Of a DNA stretch of 64,000 nt, positions 6,821 through 47,799 are shown piece by piece. Each line of letters starts with the position of its first letter. Position 1 is the stretch's first letter. The notes beneath the pieces were generated by a model. It was not told the origin of the DNA. It did no database searches and saw only the letters and a list, made by a program, of their open reading frames with translations. Origin of the DNA: a virus (lineage: Duplodnaviria > Heunggongvirae > Uroviricota > Caudoviricetes); IMG/VR virus record IMGVR_UViG_3300032236_001858. The stretch is one strand, 5' to 3'. A program made the position numbers and the translations under genes.

Positions 6821-6898
6821 ATGACAACTATTACTAACATAGCGTATTATTATGAGGGAGAGCGTAGCTCAAACGTCAGACTAATGTCTATGTCGTAA
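6821..6898 (+). CDS. attenuator leader peptide A (Tyr/Glu): MTTITNIAYYYEGERSSNVRLMSMS
   Basis: TAT TAT TAT GAG GGA GAG run; GTCAGACT (6875-6882) is complementary to the terminator 5' arm. Confidence 0.85.
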   Translation: MTTITNIAYYYEGERSSNVRLMSMS

Positions 6899-6920
6899 TG
6901 GTTTCATTATGATATTTTCT

Positions 6921-6956
6921 AACCCAGTCTGACTTTCAGACTGGGTTTTTTGTTTT
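6921..6956 (+). terminator. attenuator terminator A
   Basis: AACCCAGTCTGA-CTT-TCAGACTGGGTT + T tract. Confidence 0.9.
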
Positions 6957-6966
6957 AAAATAAATT

Positions 6967-7051
6967 GGGAGTATAACGTCAGCGGTGTGTAAGCCGCCCC
7001 TAATCAAAGAGACGTATAGAGGTAACTTGTGTGCAAATCCAGGTACTCCCA
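6967..7051 (+). ncRNA. atypical tRNA-like element
   Basis: Perfect acceptor-like stem GGGAGTA/TACTCCC+A; interior does not fold as a normal cloverleaf. Confidence 0.4.
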
Positions 7052-7057
7052 CAAAAT

Positions 7058-7129
7058 GGTCCTGTCGACTAATGGTCAGGTTACAAGACTTTCAATCTTG
7101 AGATGCGGGTTCGATTCCCGTCAGGACTA
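7058..7129 (+). tRNA. tRNA-Glu (TTC)
   Basis: CAAGA-CT TTC AA-TCTTG. Confidence 0.9.
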
Positions 7130-7136
7130 CAAATAT

Positions 7137-7222
7137 GCTACGGTATGCAAACCGGAATAAGCGACCAGACTTTCAATCTGGACATCGAAAGATGTGTGCG
7201 GGTTCGAGCCCCGTCCGTAGTA
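7137..7222 (+). tRNA. tRNA with TTC anticodon and long variable arm (class II-like body)
   Basis: CCAGA-CT TTC AA-TCTGG; V-arm ACATC-GAAA-GATGT; A73. Confidence 0.75.
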
Positions 7223-7229
7223 CAAATAA

Positions 7230-7313
7230 GGGAGAGCGCCAACGTTGGAGAGTTGGGCTTGTCTGTAAAACAAGTGGCTTACGCCTGAGTGGGTTCGATT
7301 CCCACCTCTCCCA
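7230..7313 (+). tRNA. tRNA-Tyr (GTA)
   Basis: CTTGT-CT GTA AA-ACAAG, long V-arm. Confidence 0.88.
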
Positions 7314-7354
7314 CAAAAAATTAAACAAAAAAAATGAAAAGTTGAAAGTGAAAG

Positions 7355-7537
7355 ATGATAATTATGTTGGTAGTTATCTTTTTATCAAAACCAGTAATGT
7401 CACAGAACATTATTAAATACCAACAAAAAACAAAAATTGATTTGAGATTAAATAAGTCAATTGAAAACCAAAAGGTTCTTTTTAAGAAAACTAAATTAGA
7501 ATCTGATAACTTTGAAATTAAAATTAGTCACGATTAG
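7355..7537 (+). CDS. small hypothetical protein, possible signal peptide
   Basis: 60-aa ORF filling a gap in the tRNA array; hydrophobic N-terminus. Confidence 0.4.
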   Translation: MIIMLVVIFLSKPVMSQNIIKYQQKTKIDLRLNKSIENQKVLFKKTKLESDNFEIKISHD

Positions 7538-7614
7538 CTGATTAATAAAAAGTTTAGAATCAGGTTTACTTTATGTTTAGACATGAAAGAATTTTTTACC
7601 AAAGAGTAAAAAAT

Positions 7615-7687
7615 GATGCTATCGACTAATGGTTTAGGTCGCCATCCTCTCAAGGTGGAAATACGGGTTCGAATCCCGTTAGCATTA
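7615..7687 (+). tRNA. tRNA-Glu (CTC)
   Basis: CCATC-CT CTC AA-GGTGG. Confidence 0.9.
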
Positions 7688-7752
7688 CAAAAAATTAAAC
7701 AAATGTTTGGATATTAAAAAAGTATCCTTATCTTTGTAAAAGAATAAAAAAT

Positions 7753-7824
7753 GGTCCCGTCGTCTAATGGTTAGGACAATGCCCTTTCACGGCATAGATT
7801 TCGGTTCAAATCCGTGCGGGACTA
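7753..7824 (+). tRNA. tRNA-Glu (TTC)
   Basis: ATGCC-CT TTC AC-GGCAT; own TAnnTTTG promoter at 7729. Confidence 0.88.
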
Positions 7825-7913
7825 CAATAAAAACAGATAACTCCGGTATGGTCTCAATCATTACTTAGAACCGGGCTTTGGAAAGTTACAAGTTGAGATT
7901 CTGTTTTTTATAT

Positions 7914-7996
7914 TGGAAGGTGGCCGAGTGGTTAATGGCGCTTGACTGTAAATCAAGTCTCTTGCGAGTACGGGGGTTCGAATCCCTCCCTTCCAA
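7914..7996 (+). tRNA. tRNA-Tyr (GTA)
   Basis: CTTGA-CT GTA AA-TCAAG, long V-arm. Confidence 0.9.
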
Positions 7997-8061
7997 CAAA
8001 AATAAAAAAAATTAAAAGGGAAGACAAAACTTTTTATATATACATTAATATAATTAAAACG

Positions 8062-8142
8062 ATGAAAAATTTAACTAACATATCAACAGCAATCATAGGA
8101 GGCGGCGCGGGAGCGAATGTCACTGGCTGGACTATGTTATAA
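8062..8142 (+). CDS. attenuator leader peptide B (Gly/Ala/Ile): MKNLTNISTAIIGGGAGANVTGWTML
   Basis: ATC ATA GGA GGC GGC GCG GGA GCG run; TCACTGGCTGG (8120-8130) pairs 11 bp with the terminator 5' arm. Confidence 0.87.
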   Translation: MKNLTNISTAIIGGGAGANVTGWTML

Positions 8143-8166
8143 TCTTTCATCAAAAGAATTAAACGT

Positions 8167-8200
8167 AACCCAGTCAGTGAAAATTGACTGGGTTTTTTTA
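8167..8200 (+). terminator. attenuator terminator B
   Basis: AACCCAGTCA-GTGAAAAT-TGACTGGGTT + T tract. Confidence 0.9.
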
Positions 8201-8203
8201 TTT

Positions 8204-8287
8204 CGGCAGGTACCGATGGTGTCTTATACACACTATAACCGTAGCGGGAAGTTGAAAACGTGGGTTCGAATCCCACCCTGCCGACCA
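8204..8287 (+). ncRNA. D-armless tRNA-like RNA, anticodon TAT
   Basis: Acceptor CGGCAGG/CCTGCCG-A-CCA, canonical T arm, GGTGT-CT TAT AC-ACACT, only 7 nt where the D arm should be. Confidence 0.7.
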
Positions 8288-8347
8288 ACTGAGAAAACAG
8301 TAAATCGTGAGCCAACACTAAAACCATCCCACCAGGATGTAAAACTC

Positions 8348-8419
8348 GCGGGTATCGTATAGTGGCTATTACTCCTTCCTTCCAAGTAGGAGACGTCGGT
8401 TCGATTCCGGCTACCCGCT
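8348..8419 (+). tRNA. tRNA-Gly (TCC)
   Basis: CT TCC AA loop, GCGGGTA/TACCCGC, U73. Confidence 0.88.
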
Positions 8420-8427
8420 CAAATTTT

Positions 8428-8502
8428 GGGGTCACATGTACCAAGGCTAGGCGATGATGCTTTGCAAGCATCGTGTGGTGAGTTCGATTCTCACTGGCTC
8501 CA
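8428..8502 (+). tRNA. tRNA-Ala (TGC)
   Basis: GATGC-TT TGC AA-GCATC; G3:U70. Confidence 0.85.
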
Positions 8503-8521
8503 CAAAAAATGAATAGTAAAA

Positions 8522-8689
8522 ATGACTATATTCAAATATTTAGTAGATGGAAAACTTTACTTCTTGTACAATGGAGTAAATGGATATATTGCTATACCAT
8601 TTGAGCATAGTGGAAATACTATATCAAATCCAAATCTTGATGAATTTGTACCAGTGAAAATGGGCAATGGTTCTGATGGATTTGTATAA
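8522..8689 (+). CDS. small hypothetical protein (55 aa)
   Basis: ORF MTIFKYLVDG... fills the gap between tRNAs. Confidence 0.5.
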   Translation: MTIFKYLVDGKLYFLYNGVNGYIAIPFEHSGNTISNPNLDEFVPVKMGNGSDGFV

Positions 8690-8692
8690 AAT

Positions 8693-8767
8693 GCGAAAGT
8701 CGTATAGTGGCTATTATATCAGCTTGCCAAGCTGAGGACGGCAGTTCGATTCTGCTCTTTCGCTCCA
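8693..8767 (+). tRNA. tRNA-Gly (GCC)
   Basis: TCAGC-TT GCC AA-GCTGA, U73, encoded CCA. Confidence 0.9.
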
Positions 8768-8809
8768 ATATGCCGGATGATCCACCGTTGAATCGCGGTG
8801 CCGGCTCCA

Positions 8810-8883
8810 GGGGAATTAGCTCATTTGGCTAGAGCGCTTGTCTGGCAGACAAGAGGTGACGAGTTCAAATCTCGTATTCTCCA
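8810..8883 (+). tRNA. tRNA-Ala (GGC)
   Basis: CTTGT-CT GGC AG-ACAAG; G3:U70. Confidence 0.9.
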
Positions 8884-8890
8884 CTAATAA

Positions 8891-8970
8891 GCGGGTGTCG
8901 TATAGTGGCACGTAGTAGATTATGCCGGTCTTCCAAACCGGAGATGTGAGTTCGATTCTCATCACCCGCT
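8891..8970 (+). tRNA. tRNA-Gly (TCC), enlarged D loop
   Basis: CCGGT-CT TCC AA-ACCGG. Confidence 0.85.
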
Positions 8971-8977
8971 CAAAGAT

Positions 8978-9045
8978 AGTAGTAATGTACGAGTGTTACT
9001 TCGTATTTCCAACGACTAGTTCAGGTTCGAATCCTGGGTTCCGCT
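8978..9045 (+). pseudogene. degenerate tRNA-Gly (TCC)
   Basis: TT TCC AA loop, T arm and 3' GTTCCGCT kept; 5' acceptor strand lost. Confidence 0.5.
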
Positions 9046-9058
9046 CAAATGATAATAT

Positions 9059-9084
9059 GCGGGATTAGTGTAACGGTAGCACAG
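9059..9084 (+). pseudogene. 5' half of a tRNA-Gly
   Basis: GCGGGATTAGTGTAACGGTAGCACAG, then diverges. Confidence 0.5.
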
Positions 9085-9120
9085 TAAAAACACACTCAGC
9101 AAATTTTCTCTATCTTATTA

Positions 9121-9190
9121 GGGCCAGATGCCAACGGCAGGTCAACTCGCTTGCACCGAGATTGTTTGGGTTCGATTCCCACTGTGTCCA
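9121..9190 (+). tRNA. degenerate tRNA-Ala (TGC)
   Basis: CTCG-CT TGC AC-CGAG, G3:U70, bulged acceptor stem. Confidence 0.55.
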
Positions 9191-9346
9191 CTATATTTAT
9201 TTTTCATAGCTACCTAAACTTCAATATATTAATTATATATATACCATTAGATTAGATTAAAGAAAGGTTTTTAGACAGTTTAGTATTTTTAGATTAAAGA
9301 ATGACTTGAAGTTAGACAATTAACTAAAAAATAACTATGCTAAAAA

Positions 9347-30966: not shown

Positions 30967-31016
30967 TAATTTTGTATAAAATAAGTCAAAAGGGACAAAA
31001 ACTTTTTAATATATAC
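30967..31016 (+). promoter_or_regulatory. tandem promoter block upstream of leader C
   Basis: TAATTTTG...AAAAGGGACAAAAACTTTTTAATATATAC. Confidence 0.7.
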
Positions 31017-31020
31017 AACA

Positions 31021-31128
31021 ATGACAACAATGAATTTAAATATGAATATGAATCTAACGGTGGTGCTTAATACATTATGTATTAGACGCTCTGAGGGCTT
31101 CGTCATATCTAAACGATTTGTTGACTAA
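31021..31128 (+). CDS. attenuator leader peptide C: MTTMNLNMNMNLTVVLNTLCIRRSEGFVISKRFVD
   Basis: First 21 codons are all M/T/N/L/V/C/I; TCTGAGGGCTTCG (31090-31102) is complementary to CGAAACCCTCAGA. Confidence 0.87.
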   Translation: MTTMNLNMNMNLTVVLNTLCIRRSEGFVISKRFVD

Positions 31129-31160: not shown

Positions 31161-31193
31161 AAACCCTCAGACAAAAAATCTGAGGGTTTTTTT
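31161..31193 (+). terminator. attenuator terminator C
   Basis: AAACCCTCAGA-CAAAAAA-TCTGAGGGTTT + T tract. Confidence 0.9.
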
Positions 31194-31208
31194 ATATGTA
31201 ATAAATTT

Positions 31209-31280
31209 GGGGTGGTAGCTTAATGGTGAAGCAATCGGCTGTTAACCGATAGATTATAGGTTCGAATCCTATCCACCCCG
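31209..31280 (+). tRNA. tRNA-Asn (GTT)
   Basis: ATCGG-CT GTT AA-CCGAT, G73. Confidence 0.9.
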
Positions 31281-31291
31281 CAAAAATAAAC

Positions 31292-31376
31292 TGGTAGGTA
31301 CCCGAGCGGTCTTCAGGGACTAGTCTGATATACTAGGTGAGAAATCACGACGTGGGTTCAAATCCCACCCTACCAA
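31292..31376 (+). tRNA. tRNA-Ile (GAT) with long variable arm
   Basis: CTAGT-CT GAT AT-ACTAG; V-arm GTGA-GAAA-TCAC. Confidence 0.8.
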
Positions 31377-31382
31377 CAACAT

Positions 31383-31454
31383 TCACTGGTAGCTCAGAGG
31401 CAGAGCAACCGCCTGTTAAGCGGTAGGTCGGGATATCGTAATTCACCCAGTGAG
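31383..31454 (+). tRNA. tRNA-Asn (GTT), weak T arm
   Basis: ACCGC-CT GTT AA-GCGGT; T loop ATCGTAA. Confidence 0.75.
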
Positions 31455-31460
31455 CAAAAC

Positions 31461-31539
31461 GCCTCAGTAGCCGAGGTCGCCTTCTAAGCGACTAATCGTA
31501 ACGGAACTGAAAATGTAGGTTCGAATCCTACCTGGGGTA
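31461..31539 (+). ncRNA. D-armless tRNA-like RNA, anticodon TCT
   Basis: GCCTCAG/CTGGGGT-A, GTCGC-CT TCT AA-GCGAC, canonical T arm, 8 nt in place of the D arm. Confidence 0.7.
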
Positions 31540-31594
31540 CAAAAAAAAGGGACACTAGTCTTATTAATATATAAGTAAAATGTAGGTTTGTATT

Positions 31595-32425
31595 ATGTTA
31601 GACTTTGAAAATATTCAAAAAGACTTTGAAAGTGGTCTTTTTTATCAAAAAGATATACTAATTAAGTATAGTATATCAATTAAAAAATTAAGAACTTTTG
31701 TAAAAAAAGGTTTATTGAATAAAGAAAATTGGAAATTAAAAAAATATGAAGTAAAAAGAGAAACAAAAAAGTTAATATCAGAAGGTAGAAAAAAATGGTT
31801 GAAAGAAAATACATCTAAACATCCTTGGAGAAATGGAAATAAATCTAAGCCTTGTGAGGAGTTTAAGAAATTCTTAAAAAGTAGGAATATTTTCTTTTTG
31901 GAAGAGGTTATGATTTCAAAAGAAAGATTCTATTCGGTTGATATTTTAATACCTGAGTTCACTTCGGTTGTAGAAATTAATGGTAATCAACATTATAAAT
32001 CTAATGGAGAACTTAAAGATTACTATAGTGAAAGAAATAGTTTTATAAAAAATAAAGGATGGTCGATATATGAAGTACACTACTCAATTGTTTATAATTT
32101 AGAAATGTGTGATTCTATTTTAGAAAATATTAAAAATAATAATAAAATCGATATACCATTTTATATAAAAAATAAGAAAGAAAAAAAATATAAGAATAGG
32201 GAAGAGTACTGGAATAAAAGAAAAATTAATAAATTGAATAGTTATAGTGAAAGATTAAATGAATTAAAAAACAGTAGTATAGATTTTAAAAAGATTGGAT
32301 GGGTTAAACTAGCATCTGAGATATTAAAAGTTAAAAATGTAAATAAACTATTAAAAGAAATCGATCCAGAATTTTATAAAAATTGTTATAAAAGAAAACA
32401 AAATGCCGAGGTGGTGGAATGGTAG
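31595..32425 (+). CDS. free-standing DUF559/Vsr-like endonuclease inserted in the tRNA array (probable homing endonuclease)
   Basis: YSVDILIPE..VVEINGNQHY; Lys-rich; stop codon lies inside the tRNA-Leu D loop. Confidence 0.75.
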   Translation: MLDFENIQKDFESGLFYQKDILIKYSISIKKLRTFVKKGLLNKENWKLKKYEVKRETKKLISEGRKKWLKENTSKHPWRNGNKSKPCEEFKKFLKSRNIFFLEEVMISKERFYSVDILIPEFTSVVEINGNQHYKSNGELKDYYSERNSFIKNKGWSIYEVHYSIVYNLEMCDSILENIKNNNKIDIPFYIKNKKEKKYKNREEYWNKRKINKLNSYSERLNELKNSSIDFKKIGWVKLASEILKVKNVNKLLKEIDPEFYKNCYKRKQNAEVVEW

Positions 32426-32487
32426 ACACGCTAGCCTTAGAAGCTAGTACCCGCAAGGGTGTGTGGGTTCGAGTCCCACCCTCGGTA
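32405..32487 (+). tRNA. tRNA-Leu (TAG)
   Basis: CTAGC-CT TAG AA-GCTAG, long V-arm. Confidence 0.92.
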
Positions 32488-32512
32488 CTGAAGTGAAACG
32501 AAAGTTCACTAC
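32487..32512 (+). repeat. 26-nt hairpin repeat after tRNA-Leu (copy 1)
   Basis: ACTGAAGTGAAACGAAAGTTCACTAC, identical at 33320. Confidence 0.8.
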
Positions 32513-32521
32513 AAAAAAAAT

Positions 32522-32607
32522 TGATAGGTTGCCGTAGTGGCCGAACGGTCCGGACTGTTAATCCGGTGACGAATAGTCCATCGTGGGTTCGAATCCCACC
32601 CTGTCAG
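32522..32607 (+). tRNA. tRNA-Asn (GTT) with long variable arm
   Basis: CCGGA-CT GTT AA-TCCGG; V-arm GAC-GAATA-GTC; U1:A72, G73. Confidence 0.82.
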
Positions 32608-32614
32608 CAAATAT

Positions 32615-32686
32615 AGTCCTGTAGCTTAATGGGAAAGCGCTTGCCTTACATGCAAGAGAGAGTCGGATCGTTACCGACCAGGACTA
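32615..32686 (+). tRNA. tRNA-Val (TAC)
   Basis: CTTGC-CT TAC AT-GCAAG; T loop ATCGTTA. Confidence 0.88.
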
Positions 32687-32692
32687 CAAAAT

Positions 32693-32766
32693 TGGACTGT
32701 AGCTCATTTGGTTAGAGCGCCACGCTGATACCGTGGAGGTGGTCGGATCGTAACCGACCAGTCCAA
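32693..32766 (+). tRNA. tRNA-Ile (GAT)
   Basis: CCACG-CT GAT AC-CGTGG; T loop ATCGTAA. Confidence 0.88.
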
Positions 32767-32772
32767 CAACAA

Positions 32773-32856
32773 GGTACTATGGCCGAGTGGAGTCTTTAAG
32801 ACGGGAGGCAGTGGTCTGCAAAACTTCTCACACTGGTTCGAATCCAGTTAGTACCT
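32773..32856 (+). tRNA. tRNA-Cys (GCA) with hairpin inserted in the D loop
   Basis: CT GCA AA loop, U73, D-loop insert GTCT-TTA-AGAC. Confidence 0.8.
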
Positions 32857-32861
32857 CAAAC

Positions 32862-32933
32862 GCTTCTTAAGCATTAATGGTGATGCACTAGTCTTGTAAA
32901 CTAGAGAAATCGGATCGTTACCGGTAAGAAGCT
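32862..32933 (+). tRNA. tRNA-Thr (TGT)
   Basis: CTAGT-CT TGT AA-ACTAG; T loop ATCGTTA. Confidence 0.88.
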
Positions 32934-32939
32934 CTAAAT

Positions 32940-33011
32940 TGTTCTGTAGCTCAATGGTAGAGCGCTTCTGTGACATGGAAGAGGTAGTCGGATCGTTACC
33001 GACCAGGACAA
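32940..33011 (+). tRNA. tRNA-Val (GAC)
   Basis: CTTCT-GT GAC AT-GGAAG; T loop ATCGTTA. Confidence 0.85.
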
Positions 33012-33025
33012 CAAAATAATGGATG

Positions 33026-33111
33026 GTGATTAAGAGTGTTACTTCGTGAAATGGTATACACATTTGTCTTAAAAACAAACTTTTGAGGGTTCAAGTCCCT
33101 CAGTAAAATCA
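33026..33111 (+). pseudogene. degenerate tRNA-Leu (TAA)-like element
   Basis: Leu-type D arm, TTTGT-CT TAA AA-ACAAA and T arm, but no V-arm and an interrupted acceptor stem. Confidence 0.5.
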
Positions 33112-33136
33112 CTCTTTGAACTTTCCTCCATTATAT

Positions 33137-33220
33137 GCCGATGTGGCTCAGTGGCGACAGCACTGGTTTTGTAAACCAGAGACGAATAGTCCAACGGGGG
33201 TTCGAGTCCCTCCATCGGCT
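33137..33220 (+). tRNA. tRNA-Thr (TGT) with long variable arm
   Basis: CTGGT-TT TGT AA-ACCAG; V-arm GAC-GAATA-GTC. Confidence 0.82.
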
Positions 33221-33235
33221 CAAAATAAATCACCT

Positions 33236-33320
33236 GCCTGGGTGGTGGAACGGTAGACACGCTGGACTTAAAATCCAGTGGGCAGTAATGCCCGTGAGGG
33301 TTCGAGTCCCTCTCCAGGTA
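33236..33320 (+). tRNA. tRNA-Leu (TAA)
   Basis: CTGGA-CT TAA AA-TCCAG, long V-arm. Confidence 0.92.
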
Positions 33321-33345
33321 CTGAAGTGAAACGAAAGTTCACTAC
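33320..33345 (+). repeat. 26-nt hairpin repeat after tRNA-Leu (copy 2)
   Basis: Identical to 32487-32512. Confidence 0.8.
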
Positions 33346-33351
33346 TAAATT

Positions 33352-33422
33352 ATTGGGATAGTTTAATGGTAAATCGTGGGCCTGATATGCCCGTGTTCTT
33401 GGTTCGATTCCAGGTCTCAATA
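33352..33422 (+). tRNA. tRNA-Ile (GAT)
   Basis: GGGC-CT GAT AT-GCCC. Confidence 0.8.
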
Positions 33423-33427
33423 CAAAC

Positions 33428-33499
33428 TTCGATATGGCCTATTGGTAGGGTGCAGGGGGACATGTTCCTGAGGACTTGGTTCGATTCCAGGTATCGATA
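33428..33499 (+). pseudogene. tRNA with aberrant 8-nt anticodon loop (Val GAC- or Met-derived)
   Basis: Intact acceptor and T arms; CAGGG-GGACATGT-TCCTG. Confidence 0.5.
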
Positions 33500-33506
33500 C
33501 AAACAT

Positions 33507-33593
33507 CGCGGGGTAGAGTAGAGGTCAAACTCACTGGGCTCATAACCCAGGGTTGCGCAAGTGACACGTCAGGTTCGAATCCTGCCCCCGCTA
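33507..33593 (+). tRNA. initiator-type tRNA-Met (CAT) with long variable arm
   Basis: C1:U72 mismatch, CTGGG-CT CAT AA-CCCAG with three G:C pairs, extended V region. Confidence 0.8.
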
Positions 33594-33599
33594 CAACAA

Positions 33600-33672
33600 G
33601 CAGTCATCGTATAGTAGGTGATTACACCACCTTGGTACGGTGGAGATTCCGGTTCGAATCCGGGTGATTGCT
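33600..33672 (+). tRNA. tRNA-Thr (GGT)
   Basis: CCACC-TT GGT AC-GGTGG. Confidence 0.88.
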
Positions 33673-33677
33673 CAAAT

Positions 33678-33758
33678 GCCCAGATGGTGGAATGGTATAC
33701 ACGCCAGTCTAAGAAGCTGGTTCCTTCGGGATTGAGAGTTCGAGTCTCTCTCTGGGCA
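33678..33758 (+). tRNA. tRNA-Leu (AAG)
   Basis: CCAGT-CT AAG AA-GCTGG, Leu-type D and V arms. Confidence 0.88.
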
Positions 33759-33766
33759 CAACATAC

Positions 33767-33851
33767 GCCGGTGTGATCCGATGTGGTAATGGAGTTCGGC
33801 TCATATCCGAATTGGTTTATCCTATTGCTGGTTCGACTCCAGCCACCGGTA
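33767..33851 (+). tRNA. tRNA-Met or Ile2 (CAT) with extended variable region
   Basis: TTCGG-CT CAT AT-CCGAA; identity not resolvable by eye. Confidence 0.72.
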
Positions 33852-33856
33852 CAAAT

Positions 33857-33937
33857 GTCAGAATGGTGGAATGGTATACACGCTAGTTTCAAAAACTAGT
33901 GCCGAAAGGTATGAGAGTTCAAATCTCTCTTCTGATA
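33857..33937 (+). tRNA. tRNA-Leu (CAA)
   Basis: CTAGT-TT CAA AA-ACTAG, V-arm GCC-GAAA-GGT. Confidence 0.9.
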
Positions 33938-33959
33938 CTCGATAAAATAAAAAATAAAA

Positions 33960-34241
33960 ATGGAAAAGATTATCGACATCGTTAGAGATAACGTTGCAAG
34001 ATTCGACTGGGCTTCTGAAGGAGTCCTCTACTACAAAGTAGAAACTGAAAAATATATCTATCACTTCCCAGTAGATATGAATAACAAAGAAGATGTGGGA
34101 ACAGCTAATTTTGAATCAGAACATAAGGCTATAAATCTTATGAGATATTTAAGAAAAGCATCAGAAAACTTAGAAAAAATTAAAAACGATTCAGGTACGC
34201 CTGATTGGAAAAAGACATTAAGAGTTACACAAAAAGTATGA
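33960..34241 (+). CDS. hypothetical protein
   Basis: 93-aa ORF coupled (ATGA) to LeuRS. Confidence 0.7.
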   Translation: MEKIIDIVRDNVARFDWASEGVLYYKVETEKYIYHFPVDMNNKEDVGTANFESEHKAINLMRYLRKASENLEKIKNDSGTPDWKKTLRVTQKV

Positions 34242-35503
34242 AAGATGAAAAGTATATATGCGTTATGTTTCCTTACCCAAGTGGTTCGGGATTGCATGTA
34301 GGTCACTTTTATAATTATGCTATAATTGATTCTTATTGTAGATACTTTAAATACAAAGGTCAACAAGTTTTTCAACCTTTTGGTTATGATGCCTTTGGTT
34401 TGCCGGCTGAAAACTATGCTAGAAAAGTAGGTCGTGATGCTAAAGATGTTACCTATGAAAACATCAGTCAATTTAGAAAACAGATGGAAAAGATGGATAC
34501 CAACTATCAAGAAATGTTGGTAACATCTGATCCTTCTTATCAAAAATGGACACAATGGTTGTTTTTGAAATTGAAAGAACATGGCTTGGCTTATAAAAAA
34601 GATGGTGAAGTAAATTGGTGTCCTTCTTGTGAAACCGTATTGGCTCGTGAACAAGTTAAATCTGATTGTTGTGAAAGATGTTCAACTAAGGTAGAAATGA
34701 AAACAATGAATCAGTGGTACTTTAAGATTACTGATTATAAAGAACGTTTGATTAAAAACTTGGATTGGATAGATTATCCAAAATCAACTATTAACGCGCA
34801 AAGAATGTGGTTGGAAAACTTGCACGATTGGTGTGTTTCTCGTCAAAGAAAATGGGGCTGTCCAATTCCAATAGAAGGTGAAACCGATACAATGGATACA
34901 TTTGTAGATTCTTCATTTTACTATGTTAGATATTGTGATGCTACTAATGATAATGAATTGTGTGCTAAAGATAAATATAAACAAGTAGATGTTTATGTTG
35001 GTGGTAATGAACACGCTTGTATGCACTTGATTTATGCTCGTTTTATTAATATGTTTTTGTATGATATTGGTGTTGTTTCAGAGGAAGAACCATTTAAGAA
35101 AGTTATACATCAAGGTATAATTTTGAACGAAGGTGAAAAAATGTCTAAAACAAAAGGTAATGTTATTAATCCAGATGATTATGACTCTGATGAATTGAGA
35201 TTTTATATGATGTTTATTGGTCATTATTTTGATGGTGGTTCTTGGTCTGACCAAAATATAGCTGGTATTAAAAGATTTATTAGTCGTTTTAAGGAGTGGA
35301 TGTCAAGAGAAGGTTCTGATACTTTTGATATTGAATCATTTAAGAAAAAAATATTTAACTACACTGAGAGTTTTAAGTTTAATAAAGTTGTTAGTGAGTT
35401 TATGACAATAGTTAATCAAAATAGAACTAAAAACATAACACCTGAGATAAAAAAAGAATTGATTGAATTGATTAAGGTGTATATGCCTGGAATTAAAATT
35501 TAA
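34238..35503 (+). CDS. leuS: minimal leucyl-tRNA synthetase (421 aa)
   Basis: MFPYPSG..LHVGH, GYDAFGLPAEN, Zn knuckle CPSC/CERC, DWCVSRQRKWG, MDTFVDSSFY, GGNEHA, KMSKT. Confidence 0.9.
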   Translation: MKDEKYICVMFPYPSGSGLHVGHFYNYAIIDSYCRYFKYKGQQVFQPFGYDAFGLPAENYARKVGRDAKDVTYENISQFRKQMEKMDTNYQEMLVTSDPSYQKWTQWLFLKLKEHGLAYKKDGEVNWCPSCETVLAREQVKSDCCERCSTKVEMKTMNQWYFKITDYKERLIKNLDWIDYPKSTINAQRMWLENLHDWCVSRQRKWGCPIPIEGETDTMDTFVDSSFYYVRYCDATNDNELCAKDKYKQVDVYVGGNEHACMHLIYARFINMFLYDIGVVSEEEPFKKVIHQGIILNEGEKMSKTKGNVINPDDYDSDELRFYMMFIGHYFDGGSWSDQNIAGIKRFISRFKEWMSREGSDTFDIESFKKKIFNYTESFKFNKVVSEFMTIVNQNRTKNITPEIKKELIELIKVYMPGIKI

Positions 35504-44146: not shown

Positions 44147-44394
44147 TGAGGGATATTGAGGGTAGATATTTATCTGATAATGAAATTGAAGCAATTAATT
44201 CTTATTTATTACAAAATGGTTGCTCAACTATTAATGGCACACCAAATATAACAAATATACACTTTACTAATGGTTTTTATAAAACCGAATTTTCAGAGGC
44301 TAACAAAGCAACATTAAGTTACCTTGAAGTACCTGAAAACTGGGTTAAGTCATTTATAAGAGATAAGAAAATAAATAAAATAATAAATGGATAA
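44146..44394 (+). CDS. hypothetical protein with C-terminal RDxKI motif
   Basis: Ends IRDKKINKIING. Confidence 0.65.
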   Translation: MRDIEGRYLSDNEIEAINSYLLQNGCSTINGTPNITNIHFTNGFYKTEFSEANKATLSYLEVPENWVKSFIRDKKINKIING

Positions 44395-44797
44395 GCAAAG
44401 ATACTTCAATGTAATAAAAAACTATAAGAAAATGTGTTCAAACCTTATAGCAAGTATTTCATCATATAATTGGTCTGACGAATTTTGTAGAAAAGAAGTT
44501 AAAGAACTTTATGCAAAACTAATTAAAGAATTTGAAAATGTTGACTTCACTCAATTCACACTTGAAGAACTAAAGCAACTTGATTTTAATATGTTGGATG
44601 ATGATACAATCTTAATGCCAGTTTGGGCAATTGATTGTTTACCAGATGGTGCTATTGTAATGAGTATTAATGGTGATGAAATCACTTTTGATAAATCTAA
44701 AGGTTTAGATAAAGATGTAAGATTTGGATGTACCGCCTATGGATTTTCTAAATCTCAATTAAGAGATTCTGCTATTGAGCAAGTTTTAGGTAAGTAG
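44387..44797 (+). CDS. hypothetical protein with C-terminal RD motif
   Basis: Ends LRDSAIEQVLGK. Confidence 0.7.
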   Translation: MDKQRYFNVIKNYKKMCSNLIASISSYNWSDEFCRKEVKELYAKLIKEFENVDFTQFTLEELKQLDFNMLDDDTILMPVWAIDCLPDGAIVMSINGDEITFDKSKGLDKDVRFGCTAYGFSKSQLRDSAIEQVLGK

Positions 44798-44798
44798 T

Positions 44799-45203
44799 AT
44801 GAAAGAAGTAGAATTGCTAAAATTAGGGTACATAGTACATGCCGTTAGACAAGATAAAAAAAATCTTATAATGGTTGCTTTCAATGGTGGTCCATTATTT
44901 GACTATTATATTTCAATTTTAACTAGTCAATGTGATGATTACGAATATCTAAAAACTGATAAGTCTATTATTGGTGGTATAAATTTAAACTTGATGAATC
45001 GAAAAGATTTAGAAACATTCAAGTGTGTACCAGATGATAATCCAATTGTAGGTAAAAACTTTACAGTAAATAATCATTATTGGAGTACATCAGAAGTTAA
45101 AAAGATAATAAATAATAATATTATAATAACTAAAAACTCAGTCTATGCCATTCATGATATTTCTGAGTTAAGAGATAAAAAAATAAATGATTTAGGTATA
45201 TGA
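44799..45203 (+). CDS. hypothetical protein with C-terminal RDxKI motif
   Basis: Ends LRDKKINDLGI. Confidence 0.7.
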   Translation: MKEVELLKLGYIVHAVRQDKKNLIMVAFNGGPLFDYYISILTSQCDDYEYLKTDKSIIGGINLNLMNRKDLETFKCVPDDNPIVGKNFTVNNHYWSTSEVKKIINNNIIITKNSVYAIHDISELRDKKINDLGI

Positions 45204-45754
45204 TTAATTATATTCCAACAAATAGAAACAATCCAAGATTAGCAAATGTAGGTAGTGCTTGGGGTAATATTCCTACAATAATAAAAGACATAATTGATAG
45301 GTTTAATTTAAAACAAGATTTAGCTCTTGAATTTGGCGTTGAGTATGGTTATTCAACTTCAGCGTTAGCTAACTATTTTAATAATGTAATTGGTGTTGAT
45401 ACTTTTGAAGGAGATCCACACTCTGGATTTAAAATAAATCATCTTGAAACAACTACTGAAAATCTTAAAGATTTTAGTAATATTCAATTAGTTAAATCAG
45501 ATTACAGAGATTATATTAAAGATAATAATAATATGTATGATATGATTCATATTGATATTATACACACTTACAATGAAACATTTGAATGCGGTGAGTGGGC
45601 AATAAATCACTCAAAGTGTGTTGTTTTTCATGATACACTTTCATTTTATGAAATAATGAGAGTTTGTGAAGATCTATCAGCAAAACACAACCTTGATTTT
45701 TACAATTATGAGGAATCTTATGGTTTAGGTATTTTAATTAATAATAATCTATAA
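45200..45754 (+). CDS. class I SAM-dependent methyltransferase
   Basis: ALEFGVEYGYST, GVDTF, YDMIHID, VVFHD. Confidence 0.82.
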   Translation: MINYIPTNRNNPRLANVGSAWGNIPTIIKDIIDRFNLKQDLALEFGVEYGYSTSALANYFNNVIGVDTFEGDPHSGFKINHLETTTENLKDFSNIQLVKSDYRDYIKDNNNMYDMIHIDIIHTYNETFECGEWAINHSKCVVFHDTLSFYEIMRVCEDLSAKHNLDFYNYEESYGLGILINNNL

Positions 45755-45821
45755 ACTAAATAAAGAATAAAAGTATAACAAATGGCAATAATGCCATAAT
45801 TAAAAATAAACAAGAATAAAA

Positions 45822-46013
45822 ATGAAAACAGGAACAGTAAAGTTCTACAATGAGGCTAAAGGATTTGGTTTCATCACAGACGAAAACGGAACTGACGTGT
45901 TTGTACACGCTACAGGACTAAAAGATGAAATCAGAGAAAATGATTCAGTTAGCTTTGAAGTAACAGAAGGTAAAAAAGGATTAAATGCAATTAATGTAAC
46001 AGTTAATGCTTAA
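45822..46013 (+). CDS. cold-shock domain protein
   Basis: GTVKFYNEAKGFGFI (RNP1), VFVH (RNP2). Confidence 0.95.
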   Translation: MKTGTVKFYNEAKGFGFITDENGTDVFVHATGLKDEIRENDSVSFEVTEGKKGLNAINVTVNA

Positions 46014-46032
46014 TATATTTTTAGTACTAATT

Positions 46033-46062
46033 AAAACCCTTAGATTTATCTGAGGGTTTTTT
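46033..46062 (+). terminator. intrinsic terminator
   Basis: AAAACCCTTAGA-TTTA-TCTGAGGGTTTTTT. Confidence 0.85.
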
Positions 46063-46087
46063 GTTTATAAAAATTAATATATAATGT

Positions 46088-46462
46088 ATGAAATATTTAC
46101 AAACAATAAACGAATATCAAAGAACTGTAGGTTTTAGATATTCTGAACCAAAAGAAAAATATAAAGTATCTTTATTATGTAAAGGTCAAGATATCAATGA
46201 AGATAAGATAAATGAAGGTTTATCAAAAGTTAGTGAATTGACTTATGACTCAAAGTCTATTGAAGTAAATTTACTTGATGAAGGTATGATTGCTGAACTA
46301 CCAGAAATTGGATCTGTAGAGATTAGCGCAATTGTTAGTTTTAATGTAACTCTTTACAATGAGAAAGAAGTAAATGGTGTTGTTAGTGAATTAGGTCAAA
46401 AGTTATCAAAATTTGATATTGAAATATTAGATTTTAAATCAAAAGAAAATTTGGAAGATTAA
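46088..46462 (+). CDS. tagged hypothetical protein
   Basis: MKYLQTINEY; TAATATATA at 46075. Confidence 0.72.
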   Translation: MKYLQTINEYQRTVGFRYSEPKEKYKVSLLCKGQDINEDKINEGLSKVSELTYDSKSIEVNLLDEGMIAELPEIGSVEISAIVSFNVTLYNEKEVNGVVSELGQKLSKFDIEILDFKSKENLED

Positions 46463-46547
46463 AATATTATTTCTATCTTTGTATTCACAAAACAAAAAAG
46501 AATTAAAAAAAAATTAAAAAAATATTTGACAAATTAAAACTTTGTTG

Positions 46548-46598
46548 TATATTTGTATAAAATAAGAACAAAAGGAACAAAAACTTTTTAATATATAC
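46548..46598 (+). promoter_or_regulatory. tandem promoter block upstream of leader D
   Basis: TTTG(46525)..TATATTTG...AAAAGGAACAAAAACTTTTTAATATATAC. Confidence 0.72.
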
Positions 46599-46602
46599 AG
46601 AA

Positions 46603-46701
46603 ATGAAAAACTTAAACTTAAATATCGTTAACCCTCAACCGCAAGTTGTAATCGATCAGGATCCTGGTTCGAAAGGGGCTAACTATGTGGTTTTAAGTTA
46701 A
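46603..46701 (+). CDS. attenuator leader peptide D (Pro/Gln/Asp): MKNLNLNIVNPQPQVVIDQDPGSKGANYVVLS
   Basis: CCT CAA CCG CAA .. GAT CAG GAT CCT; GGCTAACT (46677-46684) pairs with AGTTAGTC of the terminator. Confidence 0.83.
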   Translation: MKNLNLNIVNPQPQVVIDQDPGSKGANYVVLS

Positions 46702-46724
46702 AGATATTATAACTATGAAACATT

Positions 46725-46757
46725 ACCCAGTTAGTCGAAAGATTAACTGGGTTTTTT
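46725..46757 (+). terminator. attenuator terminator D
   Basis: ACCCAGTTAGTC-GAAA-GATTAACTGGGT + T tract. Confidence 0.9.
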
Positions 46758-46768
46758 GTTTTAGATAC

Positions 46769-46840
46769 AGTCCGTGGGTATGTTGGTATGAATAACCTCC
46801 TGTCACGGGGAAGAAGCCGGTTCGATTCCGGTACGGACTG
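46769..46840 (+). tRNA. tRNA-Asp (GTC)
   Basis: CT GTC AC loop, G73. Confidence 0.85.
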
Positions 46841-46845
46841 CAAAA

Positions 46846-46919
46846 CGAGAAGTGACTAAGGTTTTAAGCACGCGCCGTCTGGAGCGGTGAGTTAGCAGGT
46901 TCGATTCCTGTCTTCTCGA
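46846..46919 (+). tRNA. tRNA-Pro (TGG) with C33
   Basis: CGCCG-TC TGG AG-CGGTG; C1:G72, A73. Confidence 0.72.
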
Positions 46920-46982
46920 CAACAAGTAGCTTTTGAGGCGAAAAATACTCTTTAGAGAATAGAGTAAAACAATTCTCAAAAT

Positions 46983-47055
46983 GGTCTCGTGGTTGAATGG
47001 TTACAATACCACCCTGTCACGGTGCGAGATGCCGGTTCGATTCCGGTCGAGACCG
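46983..47055 (+). tRNA. tRNA-Asp (GTC)
   Basis: CACC-CT GTC AC-GGTG, G73. Confidence 0.88.
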
Positions 47056-47060
47056 CAAAA

Positions 47061-47131
47061 GGACATATAGCTTAAAAGGAAAGAGTACCTCCAGTGGGAG
47101 GGGAGTCTTGGTTCAAGTCCAGGTATGTCCG
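47061..47131 (+). ncRNA. tRNA body with non-canonical anticodon arm
   Basis: GGACATA/TATGTCC-G and normal T arm; arm CCTCC-AGTG-GGAGG (4-nt loop) or AG TGG GA in a weaker register. Confidence 0.55.
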
Positions 47132-47137
47132 CAAAAA

Positions 47138-47209
47138 GGTCTATTAGGGTAGTGGTTATCCTTCCCGACTGTCTATCGGGAGACACCGGTTCGAATCCGG
47201 TATAGACCG
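47138..47209 (+). tRNA. tRNA-Asp (GTC)
   Basis: CCCGA-CT GTC TA-TCGGG. Confidence 0.9.
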
Positions 47210-47256
47210 CAAATGGGCTTTTCAAGACAAAAAGTTTGTAGATTACTTAATGAAAC

Positions 47257-47331
47257 GGTCTAGTGGTGAAGTGGCTATCATATCTGCCTGTCACGCAGAA
47301 GTAGAGGGATCGAAACCCTTCTAGACCGCCA
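47257..47331 (+). tRNA. tRNA-Asp (GTC)
   Basis: TCTGC-CT GTC AC-GCAGA; T loop ATCGAAA; encoded CCA. Confidence 0.88.
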
Positions 47332-47337
47332 AAAATT

Positions 47338-47412
47338 CGGGGTGTAGCGTAGTCCGGTTATCGCGCATGCTTTGGGAGCATGAAATCGTAGGTTCGAATC
47401 CTGCCACCCCGA
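47338..47412 (+). tRNA. tRNA-Pro (TGG)
   Basis: CATGC-TT TGG GA-GCATG; C1:G72. Confidence 0.92.
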
Positions 47413-47443
47413 CAAAGAAACAAAATATTAATAAATAGAAATT

Positions 47444-47497
47444 ATGAGAACAACAACACAATACCAGCAACAACAACAAATTAATCCAACGGATTGA
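47444..47497 (+). CDS. attenuator leader peptide E (Gln): MRTTTQYQQQQQINPTD
   Basis: CAA TAC CAG CAA CAA CAA CAA; GGATTGA over the stop codon pairs with TCAATCT of the terminator. Confidence 0.88.
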   Translation: MRTTTQYQQQQQINPTD

Positions 47498-47525
47498 TAA
47501 CGGTATCGTATTGTCTAAACTTTAC

Positions 47526-47559
47526 AAACCCTATTCAATCTGATTGAGTAGGGTTTTTT
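47526..47559 (+). terminator. attenuator terminator E
   Basis: AAACCCTATTCAAT-CTG-ATTGAGTAGGGTTT + T tract. Confidence 0.9.
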
Positions 47560-47561
47560 AT

Positions 47562-47632
47562 TGTCTGATGGTGTAGTGGTAGCACAAGGGTCTTTGATCC
47601 CCTTAGTTCAGGTCCGATTCCTGATCAGACAA
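47562..47632 (+). tRNA. tRNA-Gln (TTG)
   Basis: CT TTG AT loop, U1:A72. Confidence 0.85.
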
Positions 47633-47639
47633 CAAATAT

Positions 47640-47721
47640 TGAGGAATAGAATAATGGCAGTTCACCCGCCTTTGAAGCGGAGAGAGAAATCTCAGTGTAG
47701 GTTCGAGTCCTACTTCCTCAA
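47640..47721 (+). tRNA. tRNA-Gln (TTG) with long variable arm
   Basis: CCGC-CT TTG AA-GCGG; V-arm GAGA-GAAA-TCTC. Confidence 0.82.
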
Positions 47722-47727
47722 CAAAAT

Positions 47728-47799
47728 TGCTTTATAGTATATGGGTTAACATATCTGTCTTTGAAACAGATGAACTTGGTTCGAGTCCAAGTGGAGCAA
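47728..47799 (+). tRNA. tRNA-Gln (TTG)
   Basis: TCTGT-CT TTG AA-ACAGA. Confidence 0.88.

Follow-up and report, generated by a model that had tools for sequence, protein, structure and literature searches.

The 64,000-nucleotide stretch of DNA analysed here (the window) belongs to the 476-kb genome of an uncultured phage, where a short ORF (a "test" gene) and a stop signal precede every tRNA block. In the window, the initial annotation had described five copies of one architecture, and in each of them a promoter, short ORF, antiterminator strand, hairpin with T tract and tRNA array are indeed present (Table 1); as a count for the genome, five fell short of the total of seven, since two further units, Phe/His/Trp/Lys and Arg/Ser, lie outside the window, a short way upstream of it (genome positions 218458 and 221282). 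A scan of the + strand of the genome returned exactly seven terminators with a tRNA within 150 nt, each with a matching leader (7/7), and no further look-alike was found when both strands were scanned for units of a short ORF plus terminator. The tRNAs were called with ARAGORN and Rfam, duplex energies were computed with RNAduplex, and protein domains were assigned with Pfam and NCBIfam.

Table 1. Coordinates in the window of the five leader/terminator/tRNA units and associated synthetase genes.
Feature	Position	Strand	Evidence or energy
Bacteroidota-type -7 promoter element (TAnnTTTG), Glu/Tyr leader	6780..6787	+	read in the sequence
Leader ORF 1, 25 aa, control run YYYEGE at 6845-6862	6821..6898	+	
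Antiterminator strand ("2") of attenuator 1, complementary to terminator 5' arm	6875..6883	+	RNAduplex -9.2 kcal/mol
Intrinsic terminator 1, 12-bp hairpin, T tract	6921..6953	+	-18.7 kcal/mol
Array 1: tRNA-like gene, Glu, Glu, Tyr, Glu, Glu, Tyr	6966..7997	+	ARAGORN, Rfam
Phage-type promoter-like motif, Gly/Ala leader	8030..8043	+	
Leader ORF 2, 26 aa, GGGAGA at 8098-8115 preceded by Ile-Ile	8062..8142	+	
Antiterminator strand of attenuator 2	8121..8131	+	RNAduplex -15.1 kcal/mol; cognate arm best of seven
Intrinsic terminator 2	8167..8199	+	-18.0 kcal/mol
Array 2: Ile(UAU)-like, Gly(TCC), Cys(GCA)-like, Gly(GCC), Ala(GGC), Gly(TCC) with D-arm insert, Ala(TGC)	8203..9190	+	
TAnnTTTG promoter element, leader 3	30967..30974	+	
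Phage-type motif, leader 3	30990-31016	+	
Leader ORF 3, 35 aa, control run Asn/Leu/Met/Thr/Val/Cys/Ile at 31030-31083, then Arg (AGA)	31021..31128	+	
Antiterminator strand of attenuator 3	31089..31098	+	RNAduplex -14.3 kcal/mol; cognate arm best of seven
Intrinsic terminator 3	31162..31194	+	-14.4 kcal/mol
Array 3: ~20 tRNAs (Asn, Ile, Arg(TCT), Leu, Val, Thr, Met), 276-aa ORF inside	31209..33938	+	
Truncated LeuRS-like class I synthetase, 432 aa, 3' of array 3	34205..35503	+	Pfam tRNA-synt_1
TAnnTTTG promoter element, leader 4	46548..46555	+	
Phage-type motif, leader 4	46572-46598	+	
Leader ORF 4, 32 aa, control run PQPQVVIDQDP at 46633-46665	46603..46701	+	
Antiterminator strand of attenuator 4	46676..46692	+	RNAduplex -9.8 kcal/mol
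Intrinsic terminator 4	46725..46757	+	-18.0 kcal/mol
Array 4: Asp, Pro(TGG), Asp, one odd-loop tRNA, Asp, Asp, Pro	46769..47413	+	
Leader ORF 5, 17 aa, QYQQQQQ at 47459-47479	47444..47497	+	
Antiterminator strand of attenuator 5, overlapping stop codon	47492..47505	+	RNAduplex -5.9 kcal/mol
Intrinsic terminator 5, tRNA-Gln 2 nt past T tract	47527..47559	+	-15.2 kcal/mol
Array 5: three tRNA-Gln(TTG)	47562..47800	+	
Glutaminyl-tRNA synthetase	47818..49422	+	Pfam tRNA-synt_1c 2e-97 and both C-terminal domains

The leader ORFs all start with ATG, extend over 17-35 codons in the window's five, and in each of these five end 23-34 nt before an AACCC...GGGTT hairpin (-14 to -19 kcal/mol) that is followed by 6-7 T. 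The first tRNA or tRNA-like gene begins a mere 2-16 nt past the T tract, which leaves no space for a separate promoter, and promoter elements are instead found upstream of the leaders. TAnnTTTG, a Bacteroidota-type -7 element, lies 33-55 nt 5' of the ATG in 5/7 leaders of the genome, and no host-type promoter was found before the other two (Gly/Ala and Gln); the genome also has 34 copies of a phage-type promoter-like motif, TTTTTA(A)TATATAC, most of which sit 5-25 nt ahead of a start codon. Leader 5 has no promoter of its own and begins 30 nt after tRNA-Pro, and between the last tRNA-Gln and the GlnRS gene there are 17 nt and no terminator. The array contents are those originally reported (Glu/Tyr; Gly/Ala; Asn/Ile/Leu/Val/Thr/Met; Asp/Pro; Gln followed by GlnRS), and the first element of array 1 folds as a non-canonical tRNA-like structure whose anticodon-like loop contains GUA. 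The "LeuRS" placed behind array 3 needs qualification: a LeuRS-like ORF is present ~270 nt past the last tRNA of that array, with a 93-aa ORF between, but it is truncated, and its best NCBIfam match, leuS_bact (3e-119), falls under the equivalog cut-off. RNA-library contigs from three studies span leader, terminator and downstream tRNA; because their identity is only 90-95% they come from relatives, and they are a weak hint, with DNA carry-over not excluded.

Leader composition has been claimed to match the array in each unit, and in six related huge-phage genomes the true leader/array pairing is the single best permutation (1/5040, 1/5040, 1/720, 1/720, 1/120 and 1/720; combined z 10.5), ranking first among 5040 in this genome. 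Leader/terminator/array triplets recur in related genomes, and leader composition also follows array content through rearrangements, such that where arrays have been merged, split or reshuffled the leader is altered correspondingly. One such example is a merged Glu/Tyr/Gly/Ile/Ala array in a relative, which is preceded by a single Y/I/G/A/E leader (...IYIGYIAEGGYEAG...). Elsewhere a KKKKK leader stands in front of five Lys tRNAs in one array, W is missing from the leader of an array that lacks Trp, and a W/P/V/M/T/G/A/I/D/Y/R leader precedes an array that holds exactly those tRNAs. Array-matching residues make up 41% of the ATG frame, and their share in the two remaining frames is 18% and 15%. 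The correspondence extends to codons: CGC and CGA, which account for 1.3% and 1.8% of Arg codons in the genome, are used in the Arg/Ser leaders together with tRNA-Arg(ACG), while the multi-amino-acid leader (leader ORF 3, 31021-31128; NLNMNMNLTVVLNTLCI) carries AGA before an array with tRNA-Arg(TCT), leader AGT is met by Ser(GCT), and GGA, GGC and GCG in leader 2 are met by anticodons TCC, GCC and TGC (GCG with Ala(TGC)) in array 2. Control codons are rarer than predicted from genome usage (z -4.6), and in the homologues of leader 1 from five relatives the Y/E runs are kept with synonymous changes (TAT/TAC, GAA/GAG). Counting against the match, certain residues are enriched in a leader although the array behind it lacks the corresponding tRNA, such as Lys in the Arg/Ser leader, and the Asp/Pro leader is enriched in Gln, whose tRNAs sit behind the next attenuator.

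Folding of the leaders agrees with the attenuation geometry proposed in the initial annotation, in that terminator and antiterminator are predicted to be mutually exclusive and each antiterminator strand is specific to its own terminator, whose arm is preferred over other arms (RNAduplex, combined z -6.6; p ~6e-4 within 11 Gln leaders). Across 13 Gln leaders the antiterminator strand co-varies with the terminator arm, so that unrelated arm sequences are met by changed upstream strands. In a ribosome-mask model, where the RNA downstream of a stalled ribosome folds ahead of synthesis of the 3' arm, the 5' arm is predicted to be highly sequestered as long as the stall is no later than the last control codon, and with later stalls this sequestration collapses, in 7/7 leaders with all three footprint sizes, placing the switch from antiterminator to terminator immediately past that codon in 7/7 leaders; for attenuator 1 the modelled strand becomes masked once the ribosome passes codon 15. 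In the six genomes 66% of the residues in the 10 codons before the switch boundary match the array, as opposed to 26% of those after it. Several features count against a simple switch. Antiterminator strength equals that of the terminator in attenuator 3, yet antiterminator helices are weaker overall (-5.9 to -15.1 versus -14.4 to -18.7 kcal/mol), the weakest being Gln and Arg/Ser at about -6 and -7 kcal/mol; the antiterminator is predicted by default for naked RNA in 4/7 leaders; and the two longest leaders have their stop codon 30-36 nt past the antiterminator strand, which a terminating ribosome therefore leaves uncovered, so that termination there needs kinetics or a 1:2 hairpin. Such a hairpin is clearly predicted in only 3/7 leaders.

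The in silico tests proposed with the initial annotation were all favourable, and the tRNA operons are best read as controlled by ribosome-mediated (leader-peptide) transcription attenuators that form an on-demand supply loop for specific tRNAs, to which a probability of about 0.8 is assigned. What is observed here is how the units are built and conserved, that leaders match arrays, and where the antiterminators lie and how specific they are, as opposed to leader translation, the direction of the response and the physiological trigger, which are all inferred in the absence of transcription or translation data from an infected host. As causes of the shortage, starvation and anticodon nucleases are both speculative. 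Transcription would start just upstream of the 17-35 codon leader from a host-type promoter, a phage-type promoter or both, and a ribosome running through the control codons would cover the antiterminator strand, which lies towards the 3' end of the leader. With the strand covered, the hairpin and U tract would form and transcription would stop 2-16 nt before the first tRNA, although the polymerase involved and its obedience to intrinsic terminators are not established. When a charged tRNA is scarce, the ribosome would stall on a control codon, the free strand would pair with the 5' arm of the terminator, and polymerase would enter the array and, where present, the GlnRS or LeuRS-like gene. 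The tRNA blocks are thus probably transcribed only while ribosomes stall from a shortage of those same tRNAs, for which there is no experimental evidence. As each unit yields the same tRNAs by which its control codons are read, it would work as a negative-feedback loop, which, if true, holds the supplies of particular tRNAs at a set point. Extra tRNA cannot relieve amino-acid starvation, so the loop is sensible only if tRNA and not the amino acid is limiting, and there are no data on which of the two is.

It is possible, if unlikely, that the same architecture senses host amino-acid starvation, the phage reading the nutritional state of its host and answering with a general translation boost of tRNAs and synthetases. 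The geometry is that of classical amino-acid attenuators, GlnRS and the LeuRS-like gene would be co-transcribed with the arrays (no transcription data exist), and in one relative an Asn/Arg-rich leader and terminator precede a class IIb synthetase gene with no tRNA. However, added tRNA is useless when the amino acid itself is missing, and the leaders separate isoacceptor codon boxes (Arg CGN versus AGA; Ser AGT with Ser(GCT)) in step with array anticodons, a discrimination that fits sensing at the level of tRNA.

The default antitermination predicted for four untranslated leaders, together with the strand re-exposed behind a terminating ribosome in two, could also suggest a reversed or only kinetic logic, where efficient translation gives read-through (e.g. 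by a ribosome pacing the polymerase) and stalling lowers tRNA output. This is improbable, as the leader ORFs all end too far before the hairpin for a ribosome to block it directly, and both the fold-model boundary past the last control codon (7/7 leaders) and the matching of control codons to arrays would be purposeless there. Most doubtful of all is that each short ORF, with a terminator of its own, either encodes an independent small protein or is not translated, that the arrays are constitutive through leaky read-through or unrecognised promoters, and that the leader/array match has no regulatory meaning. Expression data are absent and the Gly/Ala and Gln leaders have no host-type promoter, as such a view would allow, but the short distance from T tract to first tRNA speaks against it, and the permutations, tracking of rearrangements, frame specificity and co-varying antiterminators would be highly improbable unless selection had acted on a codon-to-tRNA link.

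The two closest public genomes to that of the phage, LR745206.1 and LR756502.1 (634,780 and 642,428 bp; ~75% nucleotide identity), were published with the Mahaphage-clade huge phages, in which tRNAs number up to 67 and synthetases up to 15, and for which Bacteroidetes hosts are predicted (Al-Shayeb et al., 2020; PMC7162821). The words leader, attenuat- and terminator are absent from that text and array regulation is not described there; as leader-peptide attenuation of tRNA genes was also not found described in full-text literature searches, the earlier statement that no description was known has held in these sources. Mahaphage-clade phages likewise combine tRNA arrays with synthetases. The E. 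coli tRNA-Phe gene pheV was considered as a cellular precedent and rejected, having no leader ORF.

T-box riboswitches of Gram-positive bacteria bind uncharged tRNA directly, with no translation involved. They share with the proposed phage units the sensing of the state of specific tRNAs, a terminator/antiterminator switch and translation-related targets, but the phage units have ATG-initiated ORFs with many control codons, and no T-box or other cis-regulatory family reached threshold in an Rfam search of the window. In E. coli pheST (pheM leader) and other leader-controlled synthetase genes, the synthetase is attenuated via its own amino acid, an arrangement resembled by the phage Gln unit, with its Gln leader and GlnRS, and by the relative's Asn/Arg leader and class IIb synthetase. 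The phage differs in that tRNA genes lie between terminator and synthetase and most units contain tRNAs only.

Enterobacterial attenuators (trp, his, leu, thr, ilvGMEDA, pheA) combine a short ORF close to the promoter, whose control codons are clustered, with 2:3 and 3:4 helices as alternatives and a terminator of hairpin and U tract. These elements are common to the phage units. Several phage leaders have codons of two or more amino acids, as in thr and ilv, and the use of rare control codons recalls leu. This comparison rests in part on the description of the pheL leader in PMC3082878. In contrast to the enterobacterial systems, only some of the phage units are predicted to form a clear 1:2 hairpin, the phage leaders are "barcodes" of up to ~11 different amino acids, and seven units are found in one genome. 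While enterobacterial attenuators regulate biosynthetic enzymes, those proposed in the phage regulate tRNA genes, so that their output would be the very molecule that is sensed.

Seven tRNA arrays in this phage genome each stand behind a unit that consists of a short leader ORF, an antiterminator strand and a terminator hairpin with a T tract. Five of these units had been described in the initial annotation as leader-peptide attenuators; their coordinates proved exact and their parts could be read at every site, so that the observation is confirmed and the count is raised from five to seven. The window occupies positions 224490-288489 of a 476,236-bp virus genome, whose nearest public relatives, LR745206.1 (634,780 bp) and LR756502.1 (642,428 bp), are uncultured phages with ~75% nucleotide identity. 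Bacteroidetes are the predicted hosts of the 634-kb and 642-kb Mahaphage-clade genomes (Al-Shayeb et al., 2020; PMC7162821). At the five sites in the window the order of parts is identical, starting with an ATG-initiated ORF of 17-35 codons, the 3' part of which contains a short strand that duplicates the 3' arm of the downstream hairpin and is therefore able to pair with its 5' arm. An AACCC...GGGTT hairpin and 6-7 T follow, and the first tRNA or tRNA-like gene begins 2-16 nt after the T tract. The terminators between leader ORF and array are GC-rich, 10-13 bp long, and fold at -14.4 to -18.7 kcal/mol. Exactly seven terminators on the + strand of the whole genome have a tRNA within 150 nt downstream, and a matching leader was found for 7/7, with the two additional units located 3-6 kb upstream of the window. 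A scan of both strands of the genome for other sORF-plus-terminator units returned nothing similar. All seven terminators are immediately followed by tRNA genes, and synthetases appear further on in only two units.

ARAGORN identified 37 tRNAs in the window, and several additional non-canonical tRNAs were obtained by an Rfam search, in which no family other than tRNA reached its gathering score in the window; sub-threshold matches to L10_leader, tmRNA and sRNA, seen in E-value mode, were rejected as being at chance level or due to a tRNA-like shape. The N-termini of the five window leaders, already noticed to be related, have a common M-(K/T/R)-(T/N)-x-x-N-(I/L) pattern with those of the relatives, encoded by A/T-rich codons and independent of the control run. 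This may represent a shared translation-initiation region, suited to a host in which Shine-Dalgarno pairing plays no part, or may reflect an origin of the leaders by duplication.

Features of the tRNA region, its upstream units and a related phage (window positions unless a locus is named)
Feature	Position	Description
Leader	6821	Glu/Tyr
Leader	8062	Gly/Ala
Leader	31021	multi-amino-acid
Leader	46603	Asp/Pro
Leader	47444	Gln (+GlnRS)
Upstream unit		leader run H-K-H-F-S-K-S-N-K-W-F, then tRNAs Phe, His, Phe, Trp, 4 Lys
Upstream unit		leader run S-K-S-S-S-S-R-S-S, then Arg(ACG) + Ser tRNAs
Eighth unit, in a relative	L005:3676-3778 (LR745206.1, ~390.4 kb)	TAnnTTTG promoter, leader MKTMTINNRNRLTDII, terminator, class IIb (Asp/Lys/Asn) synthetase gene; no tRNA
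TTTTTAATATATA(C/A) motif sites	6541-6567, 8030-8043, 30990-31016, 46572-46598	30 further sites genome-wide
tRNA-Met	6585-6657	ungated
Ala(TGC) tRNA	9122-9190	reads GCG and GCA; missed by ARAGORN
tRNA-like genes with extra/enlarged arms	6966-7053, 8203-8288, 8426-8505, 8891-8970, 31383-31539	missed by ARAGORN and/or Rfam; anticodon-like loops GUA (Tyr), UAU (Ile), GCA (Cys), UCC (Gly), GUU (Asn), UCU (Arg)
ARAGORN tRNA	33428-33500	4-base anticodon loop 'acat'
ARAGORN tRNA	47061-47131	2-base anticodon loop 'gt'
LeuRS-like protein	34205-35503	432 aa
ORFs between tRNA genes	7335-7540, 8513-8689, 31595-32425	within arrays

The claim that leader composition follows array content was borne out by permutation in the present genome and in related phages. 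The match was scored as the fraction of leader residues with a tRNA for their amino acid in the array, after subtraction of the value expected from the proteome for the same set of amino acids, and was maximised over candidate ORFs alike for true and permuted pairings. The true assignment of leaders to arrays was the single best permutation in the present genome (1/5040) and also in each of five relatives (1/5040, 1/720, 1/720, 1/120 and 1/720), giving a combined z of 10.5 for the six genomes, which are akin, so that the tests are not independent. The automated tests exclude one unit, the multi-amino-acid attenuator of LR756502, in which more than 200 nt separate the terminator from the first tRNA called by ARAGORN. 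The informative cases are relatives with rearranged arrays. One such relative has a single ...I-Y-I-G-Y-I-A-E-G-G-Y-E-A-G... leader ahead of a merged Glu/Tyr/Gly/Ile/Ala array, where the present genome has two leaders and two arrays. In another, five Lys tRNAs are found behind a K-K-K-K-K leader; the same genome has a His/Phe/Asn/Ser/Thr leader without Trp, followed by an array that also lacks tRNA-Trp, and a further, long leader that combines W, P, V, M, T, G, A, I, D, Y and R, followed by an array of just those tRNAs. The match to the array amounts to 41% in the ATG frame and to 18% and 15% in the other frames, and control positions vary synonymously among genomes, including switches between Ser AGY and TCN; together, these observations support a coding link.

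The match extends to individual codons. CGC, CGA and CGT, which are rare genome-wide (AGA makes up 80% of Arg codons), are present in the Arg/Ser leaders, with tRNA-Arg(ACG) in the array, and the multi-amino-acid leaders use AGA, paired with tRNA-Arg(TCT). With ARAGORN calls alone, 371 of 416 codons were matched vs 343 expected, an excess that is only modest because ARAGORN misses non-canonical tRNAs. Readers for seemingly unmatched codons were found among these missed genes by eye and with Rfam, namely a Ser(GCT) tRNA within the Arg/Ser array, the Ala(TGC) tRNA listed in the table and, for the ATA codon, an Ile(UAU)-like gene directly 3' of the Gly/Ala terminator. Leader codons matched by the array are also less frequent than would be predicted from genome usage (z -4.6 in the present genome and -8.6 in six genomes, with the usage of the present genome as proxy for all), for which structural constraints could be a partial cause. 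Several of the tRNA-like genes with extra arms are the first gene of their array, immediately behind the terminator. Two tRNAs called by ARAGORN have abnormal anticodon loops, the one with two bases having a counterpart in LR745206 that was called 'gtag', and these could be frameshift-type or otherwise unusual decoders.

The complementarity between leader and terminator seen in the initial annotation holds up when the RNA is folded. The best upstream partner of each terminator 5' arm is the 3' part of its own leader (-5.9 to -15.1 kcal/mol; the search covered 100 nt upstream, since 60 nt missed the strand in two long leaders), and this helix, which uses the terminator 5' arm, is mutually exclusive with the terminator. 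Cognate duplexes beat non-cognate ones in every genome, with a combined z of -6.6 across six. The 13 Gln leaders compared, which come from different phages, have widely divergent terminator arms, with upstream strands altered in step. In the permutation test of this family, from which the near-identical related-phage loci L014 and L017 were excluded, the cognate energies sum to -97.6 vs -75.0 ± 6.4 in permutations. Stalling was modelled by removing the RNA as far as 12 nt beyond the first base of the A site, folding the rest without the 3' arm and scoring the pairing of the 5' arm. In 7/7 leaders the predicted pairing probability is high for stalls through the last control codon and falls sharply thereafter, with the structural boundary 0-2 codons past that codon for footprints of +9, +12 and +15 nt; a footprint change of ±3 nt shifts the boundary by one codon only. 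When 37 leaders from six genomes are combined, the share of array-matching residues is 66% in the 10 codons ahead of the boundary, as compared with 26% after and 30% before; under the boundary rule applied, the boundary falls early in two complex leaders of one relative (in L045 and L046). In these simulated stalls, the placement of control codons is thus that expected if stalling were to cause read-through. The minimum free energy folds are less uniform, with a 1:2 hairpin, the pause or anti-antiterminator element by which untranslated RNA would terminate, outcompeting the 2:3 antiterminator helix in 3/7 leaders and the untranslated RNA favouring the antiterminator in 4/7. The antiterminators are weaker than the terminators. 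In two long leaders the strand is no longer covered by a ribosome at the stop codon, so that either a kinetic contribution or a 1:2 hairpin has to be invoked.

A TAnnTTTG and/or TTTTTAATATATA motif is present upstream of 6/7 leaders, the Bacteroidota-type TAnnTTTG element lying 33-55 nt upstream of five and TTTTTAATATATA preceding four, as well as tRNA-Met. The TTTTTAATATATA(C/A) form has 34 matches genome-wide (at most two mismatches, both strands), mostly 5-25 nt ahead of a start codon. It probably represents a promoter specific to the phage, possibly middle or late, giving very short 5' UTRs; it is frequently found downstream of a host-type TAnnTTTG element. The Gln leader has neither element and begins 30 nt after tRNA-Pro, and therefore looks like an internal second gate of the Asp/Pro operon. 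In all units the gap between T tract and first tRNA is too short for a promoter. The tRNA-Met gene, with both promoter types upstream and neither leader nor terminator, is the sole ungated tRNA of the region. Contigs of relatives from RNA libraries span leader, terminator and tRNA in three studies, which is a hint only, as a DNA origin is possible; small shares of the public RNA runs were used, stored as contigs, and 3' ends at U tracts could not be resolved.

The eighth unit, found in LR745206, has an Asn/Arg-rich leader, and no homologue of its class IIb (AsnRS-like) synthetase was found in the present genome. As this unit precedes a synthetase gene and no tRNA, the clade uses the device in its classical form too. 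No such leader was seen in phages that are more remote, neither in those whose GlnRS homologue has 43-54% identity nor at the phage locus L021, with 65%. The LeuRS-like protein is about half the normal length and matches the leuS profile in part, with its best stretch at residues 6-203 (profile 21-221), which suggests that the editing and C-terminal domains are missing. The ORFs between tRNA genes may be mobile, homing-endonuclease-like insertions; the 276-aa ORF had no Pfam or NCBIfam match.

Taken together, ribosome-mediated attenuation of the tRNA arrays, as proposed in the initial annotation, is supported by every computational test available, while translation of the leaders and regulated termination have not been shown. 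No earlier case is known to us of tRNA genes controlled by ribosomes that stall at codons read by their own products. Each unit takes ~150 nt and would act independently, covering up to ~11 amino acids, and such compact, independent units make the leaders candidate sensors of tRNA availability as well. If true, attenuation would form a loop that balances supply and demand of tRNAs instead of amino acids, the large tRNA complements of huge phages would gain a concrete, testable rationale, and sequence alone would indicate which tRNAs a phage expects to be scarce. Leaders have changed along with rearranged arrays during evolution, which allows a case for selection on the link between codon and tRNA to be made for an uncultivated phage. 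More tentatively, with a probability of roughly one in four, the seven units may form a modular, isoacceptor-resolved tRNA homeostat that replaces exactly the host tRNAs lost during infection, where the loss would be due to host anticodon nucleases of the PrrC, RloC, PARIS or retron type or to destruction by the phage itself. The leaders would then be sensors of a state of defence or counter-defence, and their barcode would reveal which tRNAs are attacked by hosts.

No description of such control was known to the initial annotation, and a full-text literature search likewise found no account of tRNA genes under leader-peptide control; leaders and attenuation go unmentioned in the paper that covers the closest genomes (PMC7162821). 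No T-box (Rfam RF00230, with its stem I specifier loop and conserved T-box sequence) reaches threshold in the window. E. coli pheV, a tRNA-Phe gene considered as a cellular precedent that might have an attenuator-like leader, was rejected, the 105-nt upstream region in MG1655 having a plain promoter and no leader ORF. The mechanism class of the phage units is classical leader-peptide attenuation, and in function they come closest to synthetase attenuators of the pheST type and to the multi-amino-acid leaders of thr and ilv. Classical leader-peptide attenuators regulate enzymes of amino-acid biosynthesis or synthetases. The phage units differ from known leaders in carrying composite barcodes and, as the point of novelty, in targeting tRNA genes, by which the device would become a feedback loop that acts on the molecule it senses.
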